From Escherichia phage Chuche, in the sequence record PP925824.1: a stretch of DNA of 34,514 bases; one strand, 5' to 3'. The notes beneath the pieces are model-generated. The model saw only the letters and a program-made list of their open reading frames with translations, searched no databases and had not been told where the DNA came from. The translations under genes were made by a program, and so were the position numbers. Of this stretch, positions 14,170-18,359 are shown piece by piece (the stretch's first letter is position 1; every line of letters begins with the position of its first letter).

Positions 14170-16982
14170 GTGAGTTTGCATGGAGCTGGAATGAACCACG
14201 GCCAGCCATTGATCCGGCCAGATTTACGGAACGCAGGCAGGAAACTGAAACCGACCTGCAACGCGCCATCCGTTACTACCTTGAGGCGGACAAAAAGGCC
14301 CGGGAAGAACAGGAAGCGAAGGAAGAAGCCTTTTTCGCACAATCCGCCATGGGTAAAAAACTCATGGCATCCCTTGAGGAAGCCGGACAGCGTGAAAAGC
14401 TGGCACAGAGCATCATCAGTAAGCGCCGGGCAACAGAACAAGACCCGGTGGCCCGTGCCTTTGCCACACTGAAGGCACTTCCCGTTTATCTGCGAGAACC
14501 TCTGAGCCGCCACCTCTCTTTCCTGCGCAAAAAACAGGAAGCCGATCGCCAGAAAGGCAAAAAGAGCTGGCAGGCGGAACGCTATGCACGCGGAACCCTG
14601 CGCAAAATATTCGAACGTCTGGACCGCACCGATCACCGCTGGCTGACACCGGGTTATCGCTCCCTTGCCGGACGCGAACGCCTGGACGATTTGCTTTACC
14701 TGCCGCAGCTCAACAAACACCAGATACAGACGCTGGCCACCATGACGGCGGCGATGTTCAGCAGCACCTTCGAAAAACTCTGCGATGGCTTTGGCGCGAC
14801 CGATGGCGAGCTGACCATGGATGTAACGCTGAAGGCGTATCAGATGCTGGCCCGCATGGCGTTACACCTGCACGCCATGCCTCCACATTATGACGCACTG
14901 ACAACAGACAAAGACCGGAGGAACGAACCAGACACGGAGCTGCTGCCGGGCGCAATCCTTCGCCTGACCTGTGCGGAATGGTGGAAACGCAAACTGTGGC
15001 TGTTACGTTGCGAGTGGAGAGAAGAACAACTCCGCGCCGCCTGTCTGGTTTCCAGAAAAACATCGCCCTATCTGAGCCAGGACGCGTTAAGCGAGTTTCG
15101 CGCACAGCGCGATAAAACACGCGATTTCCTGAAAAGTTTCATGCTGGAAAATGAAGACGGGTTCACGATTGATCTCGAGACGGTGTATTACGCGGGAGTA
15201 AGTAACCCGGTTCACCGTAAGGCAGAAATGATGGCCACCATGAAGGGGCTGGAACTTCTGGCCGAAGCCCGTGGCGACAGAGCGGTGTTTCTGACTGTCA
15301 CCTGCCCGTCAAAATACCACGCAACAACGGAGAACGGTCATCCGAACCCCAAATGGAACGGAGCCACCATGCGCGACTCCAGCGATTACCTGGTTAACAC
15401 GTTTTTTGCGGCGGTCCGCAAAAAACTGAACCGCGACGGTCTGCGCTGGTATGGCATCCGCACGGTGGAGCCTCACCATGACGGCACGGTGCACTGGCAT
15501 ATGATGGTCTTTGCACATCCGGACGAGATTGAAACCATCGTGTCCCACGTCTGCGATATTGCCATTCAGGAAGACCGCCACGAGCTGGGCGATGACATAA
15601 CTCCGCGTTTTAAGGCGGAGTACGTAGACGGCTCCAAAGGCACGCCAACCAGCTACATCGCCACCTACATCGGAAAGAACCTGGACAGCCGCGCCGTGGA
15701 TGGCATCGACCCGAAAACGGGCAAGCCACGCGTTGACCACGAAACCGGAAAATCAATGGCCGAGAGTGTGGAACGCGCCATCGGCTGGGCGCGCCTTCAC
15801 CGGGTCCGCCAGTTCCAGTTCTTTGGCATCCCCTCCCGTCAGGTATGGCGTGAACTCCGCCGCCTTGCCAGCCAGATGGCACGCAACCCGGAAGGCCCGC
15901 AACGGCTGAAGGATGATGCAATGGATGCGGTACTCGCTGCCGCTGATGCCGGGTGTTTTGCCACCTACATTGAGAAACAGGGCGGCGTACTTGTTCCACG
16001 CAAAGACTACCTGATTCGCACCGCCTACGACCTCGCAGATGAGCTGAACGATTACGGCGAACAGAGCGTACAGATTTACGGAATCTGGTCACCACTCATC
16101 GGGGAATCCTCCCGTGTGTGCACGCATCCGGATAACTGGAAACTGGTAAGACGTAAACCGGAAACGGAAGACAGCGCCCGCGAAAATGGTTTTGACCTTC
16201 AGGGCGGCCCTGCCGCCCCTTGGACTCGTGGCAATAACTGTCCCCGTGTACAGGAAACGAACAACAACGGGACAGAACAGCCGGAAGAACGGCCAGCACC
16301 GTGGCCGCAGCTCCCTGATGGCGTTGAAGTGAACGAATGGATGCGCTCACTGAAACGGCACGAACGCCGGGCGCTGATGCGTTCGCTTCGTGACAAACAG
16401 GCAAAAAACAGCAGTGATGAAATGCAGAGCTGGACACAGAGCCGCAAACAGCAGCGGCCTTTGCCTGATAACCACGAATTACTCGCTAAAGAATGGCGGG
16501 AATCTGCCGAATCTCTCGGCCTGCATATCGGTGAACAGCAGATGCAGCACCTGTTACGGGGCGGCAGCCTGTACGTTGACGGCAGCATCATTGCACCGCA
16601 GGGATTTGAAATTGTACGCAAACCGGATACCCGACCGGACAGCCGGATCACGCAGCTCTGGCAGCGCCTGAGCCGTAACCACGGCGTAAGCAGCACGGAG
16701 ATCCGCCATAACCCGGTCGCCAGCTATCTGGAACAGCTGGGGGCATCAGACCCCGAAGCCGCCGCACGCCTGGCATCCACACTTCAGCAAGACCAGAACA
16801 CCATGAAAACACCCGTTACCGTGCTTTCTGACATGCTGCGCGCCATCCGCGACGCAGAGCACGCACAGAGAATCAGTGAAACCACTGAACGCGCCCGCCG
16901 CAAAGCAGACCTGCTGCGGGGTGGCCTGACCAGTGTAAACAAAAAAACAGACAGAAACGGGATTCACAAATCCCGTAAATGA
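14166..16982 (+). CDS. A: Replication initiation endonuclease A (HUH rolling-circle initiator, P2 gpA-like)
   Basis: HUH motif VHWHMMVF and tyrosine motif SYIATYIGK; about 938 aa, longer than I recall P2 gpA to be; position after the early genes. Confidence 0.85.
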   Translation: MSEFAWSWNEPRPAIDPARFTERRQETETDLQRAIRYYLEADKKAREEQEAKEEAFFAQSAMGKKLMASLEEAGQREKLAQSIISKRRATEQDPVARAFATLKALPVYLREPLSRHLSFLRKKQEADRQKGKKSWQAERYARGTLRKIFERLDRTDHRWLTPGYRSLAGRERLDDLLYLPQLNKHQIQTLATMTAAMFSSTFEKLCDGFGATDGELTMDVTLKAYQMLARMALHLHAMPPHYDALTTDKDRRNEPDTELLPGAILRLTCAEWWKRKLWLLRCEWREEQLRAACLVSRKTSPYLSQDALSEFRAQRDKTRDFLKSFMLENEDGFTIDLETVYYAGVSNPVHRKAEMMATMKGLELLAEARGDRAVFLTVTCPSKYHATTENGHPNPKWNGATMRDSSDYLVNTFFAAVRKKLNRDGLRWYGIRTVEPHHDGTVHWHMMVFAHPDEIETIVSHVCDIAIQEDRHELGDDITPRFKAEYVDGSKGTPTSYIATYIGKNLDSRAVDGIDPKTGKPRVDHETGKSMAESVERAIGWARLHRVRQFQFFGIPSRQVWRELRRLASQMARNPEGPQRLKDDAMDAVLAAADAGCFATYIEKQGGVLVPRKDYLIRTAYDLADELNDYGEQSVQIYGIWSPLIGESSRVCTHPDNWKLVRRKPETEDSARENGFDLQGGPAAPWTRGNNCPRVQETNNNGTEQPEERPAPWPQLPDGVEVNEWMRSLKRHERRALMRSLRDKQAKNSSDEMQSWTQSRKQQRPLPDNHELLAKEWRESAESLGLHIGEQQMQHLLRGGSLYVDGSIIAPQGFEIVRKPDTRPDSRITQLWQRLSRNHGVSSTEIRHNPVASYLEQLGASDPEAAARLASTLQQDQNTMKTPVTVLSDMLRAIRDAEHAQRISETTERARRKADLLRGGLTSVNKKTDRNGIHKSRK

Positions 16983-17055
16983 GCAAAAAACGCGCCGCGA
17001 TATATGAAGCGCGCATAAAACAGGCAAAAACGGGATTTCAGAATCCCGTAAACGA
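16945..17055. repeat. Two 38-bp direct repeats, each containing the palindrome acgggatt-N-aatcccgt; candidate centromere/operator
   Basis: 16945-16982 and 17018-17055 are near-identical; between them a GC-palindromic core (cgcgccgcg...gcgcgc); immediately upstream of parM. Confidence 0.5.
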
Positions 17056-17083
17056 TTAATTAATCAACATAAGGAAAAGCGAC

Positions 17084-18043
17084 ATGAAAATTTGTATCGA
17101 TGACGGCTCCACCAACATCAAGCTGGCATGGACTGAGAACGGCGAACGCCGCAACGCCATCAGCCCGAACAGCTTCAAGTCGGAATGGTCTGCGCCGTTC
17201 GGTGGCACGCAGCCCGCGAACTACATGCTTGATGGCGTGCGCTATGGTTTTGATCCGGTCAGCGATCGCTTTGTCCAGACGACCGACACGCAATACCAGT
17301 ACAGCGATGTGAATGTCATTGCCATTCATCACGCGCTGGTCAAATCAGGCATCACACCACAGGAAGTGGATGTGGTTGTCACCCTGCCACTGAGCGAATA
17401 TTTCGACACAAACGCACAGCCGGATATGACCAACATCAACCGCAAAAAAGCGAACGTTATGCGCCCGGTGGAGTACCAGAACGGAAAAGCATTCACTATC
17501 CGTAACGTACGGGTTATGCCTGAATCCATTCCGGCTGGCTTTAAAGCACTGGCTGACATGAGTCCGTTTGAATCCCTGCTGATTGTGGATTTGGGCGGAA
17601 CCACGCTGGATGTGGCAAAGGTTCAGGGGCAGCTGGCAGGTATCAGCCAGGTGTTTTGCGATCCACACGTAGGCGTTTCCCTGATGGCTGATGCCGTGCT
17701 GTCGGTGATGGCCACTAACGGTATACGTACCAGTCACCACATCGCCAATGCCATTATTGAGCACCGTCACGATGAAGCCTGGCTGCGCCAGCACATTCAC
17801 AATGACGCGCATTACAACAGCCTGATGGCGGTTATTCGTGAAAAGGAAGAAACACTGAAACAACGCGTGATCCGCGCGCTGGCGGGTTTTTCGGGTTACG
17901 GGCGGGTGATGGTTGTCGGTGGAGGGGCGGAGATTGTGGCACCCGCTATCCGCGAAGCCTGCGGAGTTAATGCGACTTTCATCGCGGACGGGGTGCCACA
18001 GTTTGCTCTGGTTAATGGGCTGTACGCAATGGACAAGGAGTAA
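17084..18043 (+). CDS. parM: Actin-like segregation ATPase ParM/StbA
   Basis: MKICIDDGSTNIKLAW...YSDVNVIAIHHAL...VMPESIPAGF...IVDLGGTTLDV...MVVGGGAEI aligns along its length with plasmid R1 ParM as I recall it. Confidence 0.9.
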   Translation: MKICIDDGSTNIKLAWTENGERRNAISPNSFKSEWSAPFGGTQPANYMLDGVRYGFDPVSDRFVQTTDTQYQYSDVNVIAIHHALVKSGITPQEVDVVVTLPLSEYFDTNAQPDMTNINRKKANVMRPVEYQNGKAFTIRNVRVMPESIPAGFKALADMSPFESLLIVDLGGTTLDVAKVQGQLAGISQVFCDPHVGVSLMADAVLSVMATNGIRTSHHIANAIIEHRHDEAWLRQHIHNDAHYNSLMAVIREKEETLKQRVIRALAGFSGYGRVMVVGGGAEIVAPAIREACGVNATFIADGVPQFALVNGLYAMDKE

Positions 18044-18047
18044 ACCA

Positions 18048-18359
18048 ATGACGACACCAACCAGACGGATAAGTTTCTATCTGAAGCCTGCGGCCGTCAA
18101 GAACGAAGGCGAAGCATGCGCCTGGCTGGACAGCCTTACACCAGAAGCCCGCAAAAGCGGCCAACGCGTGGCTTTTCTGGCTGGGCTGGCACTTCTGAAA
18201 ATGAATCCAGCAGAGGCTTACCGACTAGCTGCATGGGCTGACGATGAGGCGTTATCCGTGACACAAACCAGGACAGAACGCCCCGTGTCACAGCCAGTAC
18301 CAACCGCACAGATAACCAATCAGATGGCCGGAAATATCAGGGCGTTATTCCCCGAATAA
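18048..18359 (+). CDS. parR: ParR-like partition adaptor/repressor
   Basis: ATG 18048 follows the parM stop; RRISFYLKPA...AWLDSLTPEARKSG...AFLAGLAL parallels R1 ParR (RTIAFKLNPD...LDSIPQGERS...ALTAGLAL). Confidence 0.75.
   Translation: MTTPTRRISFYLKPAAVKNEGEACAWLDSLTPEARKSGQRVAFLAGLALLKMNPAEAYRLAAWADDEALSVTQTRTERPVSQPVPTAQITNQMAGNIRALFPE

Follow-up and report, generated by a model that had tools for sequence, protein, structure and literature searches.

The 34,514-nucleotide DNA of Escherichia phage Chuche (PP925824.1; "the window" hereafter means this whole stretch) carries an actin-type partition cassette immediately downstream of its replication gene A. The cassette comprises two direct repeats with internal palindromes, followed by parM and parR, homologues of the type II partition genes of plasmid R1. 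The features of the locus, with coordinates in the window, are as follows.

14139-16982, plus strand: replication gene A, 947 amino acids, matching Pfam Phage_GPA (E 2.7e-129); last recognised gene of the early operon, its 3' end overlapping the distal repeat
16944-16982, unstranded: distal 39-nt repeat, putative ParR site 1, with palindrome ACGGGATTCACAAATCCCGT at 16957-16976; overlaps the last codons of gene A
16991-17013, unstranded: central G+C-rich imperfect palindrome CGCGC-N13-GCGCG between the repeats, read from the sequence
17017-17055, unstranded: proximal 39-nt repeat, putative ParR site 2 and possible operator, with palindrome ACGGGATTTCAGAATCCCGT at 17030-17049
17071-17075, plus strand: Shine-Dalgarno sequence AAGGA, 8 nt 5' of the parM ATG, read from the sequence and kept in relatives
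17084-18043, plus strand: parM, predicted actin-like segregation ATPase, 319 amino acids (PDB, Pfam, PHROG, dN/dS)
18048-18359, plus strand: parR, predicted DNA-binding adaptor, 103 amino acids, with a conserved N-terminal domain, a variable linker and a conserved C-terminal N-I-x-x-L-F-P (Pfam, hhalign, family alignments)

The cassette as such is already known. RefSeq labels its products "plasmid segregation protein ParM" and "plasmid partitioning/stability family protein", PHROG labels both "partition protein", and Rousset et al. (2022; PMC9122126) remarked on a putative partition system, present in about one in four E. coli P2-like phages, that might allow plasmid maintenance. Its place in their account is the gpA-gpQ locus, which in P2 holds old and tin (PMC9122126), in agreement with an initial annotation of this DNA that had located the cassette after gene A, at the position of tin in P2. 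In the literature on ParM in P2-like phages, Peduoviridae and P88, we found only this remark and generic annotations, and no functional study. As a discovery, the finding is real but ordinary. What we add here is the backbone status of the cassette, its occurrence at the same locus in four other genera, cis sites unlike those of R1, and a census that speaks against a stable episome. The remaining interest lies in why an integrating phage lineage has long kept a partition machine that appears old, is under purifying selection and has its own conserved site motif.

ParM and ParR of the cassette

The window ParM matches the ParM of plasmid R1 (PDB 1mwk) end to end (E 3.6e-92, residues 2-316 against 2-318), with a global identity of 48.4%, and the ParM chain of PDB 4A62 is also among its PDB matches. 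Both Pfam matches, to StbA_N (E 5.9e-82) and to the ParM C-terminal domain (E 4.6e-68), lie far above the curated cut-offs. In the alignment with R1 ParM, the nucleotide-binding motifs DDGSTN, MPESIPAG, DLGGTTLD and GGGAE are conserved; they contain the phosphate 1 motif (DDGST), the MPES glutamate, the phosphate 2 motif (DLGGTT) and the adenosine motif (GGGAE), all intact. The catalytic assignment of these residues is established knowledge of R1 ParM. Judged by these alignments, parM encodes a full-length, motif-intact ATPase of the ParM/StbA family and of R1 type.

The start of parR lies 4 nt past the parM stop codon. A TTG at 17913 given in the list of open reading frames (ORFs) is a mere upstream extension, and the ATG at 18048 agrees with all homologues. 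ParR matches Pfam PF10784 (Plasmid_stab_B, E 1.7e-24), as does the R1-type ParR of plasmid pEG356, which we took as the R1-type reference (its ParM is 99.4% identical to the R1 ParM of the PDB). An hhalign comparison of the phage ParR profile with this R1-type ParR gave a probability of 97.5%. The search with family hidden Markov models that the initial annotation had proposed therefore returns StbA_N and the ParM C-terminal domain for ParM and PF10784 for ParR, and its view of parM and parR as clear homologues of the R1 genes is borne out by the PDB, Pfam and hhalign results. In NCBIfam, ParM scores far below the equivalog cut-offs and no model matches the window ParR; this reflects a diverged clade and is no argument against homology.

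Across the phage family, ParR residues 1-63 are conserved, the linker is variable and a C-terminal N-I-x-x-[LFM]-F-P is invariant. When the C-termini of R1-type, IncI and IncF ParRs are aligned with those of the phages, a motif N-[AI]-x-x-[LM]-F-P is common to phage and plasmid proteins. The C-terminal end of R1 ParR reportedly contacts ParM, according to the work behind PDB 4A62. At the level of sequence, the ParM-binding peptide of ParR is present, and physical binding is predicted. The Xuanwuvirus ParR lacks a middle segment found in plasmid ParRs and in the ParRs of other phage genera. It is ~30% identical to plasmid ParRs, and a sequence search against solved ParR structures gave no match at E values up to 10. 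The AlphaFold2 model of the ParR monomer (predicted local distance difference test, pLDDT, 56) is too poor for a fold search; it places helices at residues 20-29 and 32-52 after an unstructured N-terminus, which fits a strand-helix-helix arrangement whose strand forms only in the dimer.

Two ParR alleles occur in E. coli phages. They are 56% identical overall, have identical first 18 residues and share the same upstream sites, and the identical N-terminus includes the predicted DNA-reading strand RRISFYLKP. The second allele diverges from parR codon 18, the point at which DNA similarity to 569R5-type phages ends.

Palindromic repeats upstream of parM

The two 39-nt direct repeats are 82% identical and lie 73 bp apart, start to start. 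Inside each is a perfect 8+8 palindrome, ACGGGATT-N4-AATCCCGT, which has only two matches in the 34.5-kb window even when three mismatches are allowed (0.10 expected; none of 100 shuffles gave two). Both copies are perfect in the window, and most relatives have one mismatch in the distal palindrome. The initial annotation had described 38-bp direct repeats with internal palindromes in the position of a parC centromere. The repeats and palindromes are real and the length is 39 nt; the assigned position is upheld by a CGG(G/C)-N9-10-CCC site that is kept ~40-55 nt before parM in six lineages.

The conservation of these elements follows parMR. In the Hafnia relative, the core GGGATT-N4-AATCCC is kept and the gene A stop codon falls inside the spacer of the distal palindrome, so that the conservation is not accounted for by coding constraint. 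In Plesiomonas, CGGG-N10-CCC(G/A) occurs in each of two 26-nt direct repeats spaced at 72 bp; the geometry is the same, and the spacer is different and not self-complementary. The proximal CGG(G/C)-N9-10-CCC is invariant, ~40-55 nt ahead of the parM ATG, across the six phage lineages, in spite of ParMs as divergent as 53-63% identity, and it accompanies parM even where other ORFs separate gene A from parM. It was not found upstream of parM in the plasmid and integrative and conjugative element (ICE) loci that we fetched. Among relatives, changes in the outer stem are not compensatory and the core hexamers are fixed, which argues against selection for an RNA hairpin. Taken together, the comparative data point to a protein-binding site tied to parMR.

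The parallel with the R1 centromere needs correcting, since the repeats do not form an R1-like iteron array. Autocorrelation at an offset of 11 gave z 0.4 here against z 4.8 in the R1-type locus used as a positive control; in place of an 11-bp periodicity there are the two 20-bp palindromes inside the 39-nt repeats.

Several further observations concern the cis elements. The half-site CACAAATCCC resembles the R1 iterons AAACAAAACCC by eye, which we record as a lead only. In phage 520873 the central palindrome reads CGTGC...GCACG, with both arms changed and the symmetry kept, a single event and weak evidence. Upstream of parM in Serratia (L017, 3887-3940) and Enterobacter (L018, 3883-3950) lie large dyads, whose arms of 14 and 20 nt flank a G+C-rich centre at a distance of 26-28 nt from each other; their layout is unlike that in E. 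coli, yet the proximal CGGC-N9-CCC site is kept. A further CGGG-N10-CCCG palindrome, CGGGGGAGCAATCCCCCG, is present in the window at 8579-8596, in the gap between a gpD-like gene (6692-7933) and a methylase gene.

Distribution, residence and expression context

Thirteen phage records carry the 1.5-kb cassette at 93-97% identity, among them P88, its three fellow Xuanwuvirus species and Citrobacter phage phiSM, and it is present in about a quarter of complete E. coli genomes (1308 of 5426). Across phages and genomes, the repeats, parM and parR show 93-98% nucleotide identity. The cassettes of P88, Xuanwuvirus and phiSM have the same position after gene A and the same annotation, with nothing essential different; that of the window departs from its relatives only in the downstream cargo, a DUF3800 gene, and in the perfection of both palindromes.

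The cassette is a conserved backbone module of P88-like (Xuanwuvirus) phages and not hotspot cargo. All four Xuanwuvirus species carry it, and the order A-parM-parR is constant among P88, 520873, 569R5, a 34-kb circular record and the window, while the genes after parR are all different. The ratio of nonsynonymous to synonymous substitution rates (dN/dS) is 0.04-0.11 for parM, indicating strong purifying selection, and 0.16-0.36 for parR, indicating moderate purifying selection. The G+C content of parM and parR (54.5-54.8%) is close to that of gene A (57%) and the portal gene (54%), as against 40.6% for the downstream DUF3800 gene.

That gene (18591-19397, minus strand) encodes a 268-amino-acid protein, matches the PADLOC candidate defence family PDC-M04A (E 2.6e-35) and stands out against a backbone of ~55% G+C. 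It, and not parMR, looks like the variable hotspot cargo, with unrelated genes at the same spot in relatives.

A search of 5.8 billion proteins placed next in similarity the ParMs of Plesiomonas, Hafnia, Serratia and Enterobacter (53-63% identity), whose genes all belong to P2-like phages of Enterobacterales and have a Phage_GPA gene on one side and a portal gene on the other. At the level of ~50% identity, three contexts were looked up, and all were plasmid- or ICE-like. Conservation of ParM across these phages equals or exceeds that of gene A (29-59%) and of the portal protein (30-46% in the four lineages), and the G+C content of parM tracks that of gene A lineage by lineage; R1-type parM has 39%. 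In a neighbour-joining tree of 12 ParMs, the Escherichia/Hafnia/Plesiomonas group stands at 95%, Serratia/Enterobacter at 100%, and the split of all phage from all plasmid proteins at ~61%; a single ancient acquisition of phage ParM is compatible with this tree and unproven. These protein comparisons indicate that the module is old in P2-like phages and forms a lineage apart from plasmid systems.

Recent capture from a plasmid was considered and rejected. By tblastn, ParR matches only 7 of 72,556 plasmid records, four of which had a replication endonuclease beside the match in a DNA search; the records inspected among them were a phage-sized circle and a degraded linear prophage fragment. Among the best 5000 plasmid records matched by ParM, six reach 95-99% identity, all of them records already seen with the cassette, and the rest are below 60%.

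Mosaic joints are visible at both edges of the cassette, at ~16980-17084 and ~18102. A Hafnia phage shares 95% identity with the window in ParM and 98% in the portal protein and only 59% in gene A, which places a breakpoint at the repeats.

The prophages that carry the cassette reside in chromosomes. In the complete E. coli genomes, 1454 of the 1456 cassette places are chromosomal, and a 1.2-kb query over the region beside the integrase gene matched 433 genomes with this integrase type, none of which has a contiguous attP. The relevant feature of the window is:

10048-11067, minus strand: tyrosine integrase, adjoining attP (~9845)

Among the matches listed, all break at ~9845 beside the integrase gene, and pdxB is annotated adjacent to many of them. 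The window is continuous across ~9845, as expected of the phage or circular, unintegrated configuration and in line with the intact attP that the initial annotation had noted. The plasmid-like episome that it had raised is at odds with the census as a normal state. One record, NZ_CP148288.1 (circular, 34,461 bp, labelled a plasmid), is a complete P88-like phage and the sole phage-sized circular record among the 72,556; a 99.9% twin is integrated in the chromosome of a sibling strain (NZ_CP148378.1). This circle may be excised replicating DNA caught by assembly, or a true episome. The other "plasmid" matches comprise prophages carried by large plasmids and NZ_CP049283.1, a degraded, linear, IS1-ridden prophage remnant that we set aside. 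Gene A belongs to the P2-type rolling-circle initiators, and we saw no plasmid Rep gene. Stable plasmid lysogeny is not the norm in these genomes, and a rare or transient episomal state may occur.

Beside attP and the integrase gene, the window encodes an N6/N4 DNA methyltransferase (8945-9736, plus strand; Pfam PF01555). Its best PADLOC match is MTase_II, with an orphan methyltransferase family also matched, and no restriction partner was noticed nearby.

On the plus strand, no terminator-like site lies between the gene A stop codon and parM. No sigma-70-like promoter upstream of parM scores at least 9/12, the best candidate of a lenient scan reaching 7/12, and on these scores no own sigma-70 promoter is recognisable between or after the repeats. 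An ATTAAT near -25 is kept in four lineages but is without the key A at position 2. The next relevant signal lies beyond parR:

18571-18590, plus strand: terminator-like hairpin with a T run, the first on this strand after gene A and the likely end of the A-parM-parR transcript

A second terminator-like hairpin, on the minus strand at 18407-18426, likewise lies between parR and the DUF3800 gene; it probably ends transcription of the cargo, and the plus-strand hairpin that of the early operon. Because there is no recognisable promoter and no terminator between gene A and the cassette, and because the prophage is integrated in lysogens, parMR are probably transcribed together with the early replication operon once infection or induction has occurred.

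Possible roles and known systems

We favour, with about even confidence, a genuine and selectively maintained ParMRC-class module that acts on transient extrachromosomal phage circles and is read with the early operon. The N-terminal PF10784 domain of ParR, probably as dimers of dimers (tetramers), would bind each 20-bp CGGG-N10-CCCG palindrome, at two sites whose spacing of 73 bp corresponds to seven helical turns and which are placed around the 3' end of gene A, shortly before parM. The conserved C-terminal helix of ParR would recruit or capture ParM, which would polymerise with ATP and push ParR-bound phage DNA molecules apart. With parMR expressed after infection or induction, the target would be the transient circles replicated by gene A, which could be spread through the cell and into both daughters or positioned for replication, with no permanent plasmid prophage involved. 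The benefit could lie in distributing circles to daughter cells, as for the srpMRC system of excised SXT/R391 elements, or in the spatial organisation of replication, as for the AlpAC system of prophage CGP3, two outcomes that are not separable here.

A number of points weigh against this proposal. ParR-DNA binding, filament formation and the timing of expression are all inferred from sequence, and with so poor a monomer model the ribbon-helix-helix fold of ParR is predicted from family membership only. The two palindromic sites compare with ten iterons in R1, and so small a complex may serve only as an operator and not as a centromere. Both palindromes of the E. coli version also look like intrinsic terminators of the minus strand. 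A weak or non-sigma-70 promoter, for example one overlapping the proximal palindrome, could allow the cassette to be expressed in lysogens. If commitment to lysis after derepression is assumed to be irreversible, the gain from "inheritance" of circles is not obvious, and a pure organiser of replication becomes about equally likely.

Such an organiser, confined to the lytic cycle, would position or spread replicating circles for replication and packaging without a role in inheritance by daughter cells, and we regard it, taken by itself, as possible though somewhat doubtful. It would account for the place of the cassette directly downstream of gene A with neither terminator nor recognisable promoter between, it has a precedent in AlpAC, an early-induced pair required for efficient replication (PMC4446434), and lysogens that are integrated have no need of partition. 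It has most in common with the module proposed above, the benefit being the sole difference; such a module is confined to about one in four E. coli P2-like phages, replication goes well in P2 and many relatives that lack it, and for the phages at hand the role is drawn by analogy. A facultative plasmid prophage is unlikely. Under that explanation the P88-like phages, roughly one in four of the P2-like prophages of E. coli, would either integrate at pdxB and other sites or persist for many generations as low-copy circles, replicated by A and partitioned by ParMRC, that escape notice in most finished assemblies, NZ_CP148288.1 being one captured example. The completeness and selective maintenance of the module fit this, as do that phage-sized circle with all its phage genes, the unintegrated state of the window itself, the suggestion already in print (PMC9122126), and phage D6 (91 kb), the only other phage in our collection with an R1-type ParM. 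Set against it are the overwhelmingly chromosomal places and the missing contiguous attP, the chromosomal twin of the circular record, the nature of the other "plasmid" matches and the retention of the integrase. In P2, moreover, lytic rolling-circle replication is driven by gene A, which is itself subject to immunity control.

Two further explanations remain. It is quite improbable that the palindromes, instead of being ParR sites, act as RNA hairpins or transcription terminators that would, for example, keep leftward antisense transcripts out of gene A, with ParR binding elsewhere or nowhere. Both do score as terminator-like on the minus strand (8-bp stem, 4-nt loop, T-rich tail), and for both strands the predicted fold of the region is more stable than that of shuffled sequences (z ~-5), although such a score follows trivially from two copies of one palindrome. 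The Plesiomonas spacer leaves no real hairpin, the outer stem changes and identical core hexamers are those described above, no annotated minus-strand gene in need of termination was found between parM and the site at 18426-18407, and Rfam gave no match at E values up to 1 in 16500-19000. Co-option for exclusion, which the initial annotation had also raised, or for defence is very improbable; in view of its location in the gpA-gpQ defence hotspot, the cassette would interfere with incoming plasmids or phages. In P2 the locus holds old and tin, and many defence systems are found there (PMC9122126), and the neighbouring DUF3800 gene matches a PADLOC candidate family. PADLOC, however, returns no family for either ParM or ParR, and the cassette behaves as conserved backbone, constant and of backbone G+C content beside variable cargo; the low identity of ParR to plasmid ParRs and the absence of the site motif from the plasmid loci fetched make cross-binding to plasmid centromeres unlikely.

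The closest known counterpart of the proposed module is parMRC (parA/stbAB) of plasmids R1 and NR1, which has the same order of cis sites, parM and parR, a ParM with 48% identity from end to end and every nucleotide-binding motif, and a ParR of the same Pfam family. The predicted beta-strand reads RRISFYLKP in the phage and RRTIAFKLNP in the R1-type protein, and the C-terminal motif is similar. R1 parC consists of ten 11-bp A-rich-CCC iterons in two blocks around the promoter (z 4.8), whereas the phage has two 20-bp palindromes 73 bp apart and no recognisable promoter; the R1-type ParR has 116-117 amino acids as against 103 in the phage, which lacks the middle segment; and R1 is a low-copy plasmid, whereas the replicon here is an integrating phage. 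Phage D6 encodes a ParM homologue 47.8% identical to that of the window and annotated as "StbA type plasmid stability protein". We take D6 to be a P1-like phage whose prophage is a plasmid, whereas P88-like phages encode an integrase and are found integrated.

Among integrating elements, srpMRC of the SXT/R391 ICEs (Carraro et al. 2015, PMC4489591) is a type II partition system that acts on the transient replicating circle, with four short direct and inverted repeats upstream as its centromere. The likeness lies in a type II module on a normally integrated element, acting, as we propose for the phage, on a transient circle. SrpM and SrpR are distant from R1 ParM and ParR, and SrpR is without homology to known ParRs (PMC4489591), whereas the phage proteins are clear members of the R1 family; the host element is a phage and not an ICE, and function has been demonstrated for srpMRC while the phage module is known from its sequence. 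In prophage CGP3 of Corynebacterium glutamicum, AlpAC with alpS is an early-induced pair of actin and adaptor needed for efficient replication of phage DNA (Donovan et al. 2015, PMC4446434). There, too, the adaptor sites lie upstream of the operon, and AlpAC acts early after induction on circular phage DNA; it differs in belonging to another actin-like branch, in an adaptor unrelated to PF10784, in its Gram-positive host and in the demonstrated role in replication. Should the phage module prove active, a prophage family that is among the commonest in E. coli would use actin-like filaments on its own DNA, and the short list of integrating elements shown to do so, CGP3 with AlpAC and SXT/R391 with srpMRC, would extend to a tractable model group of phages.

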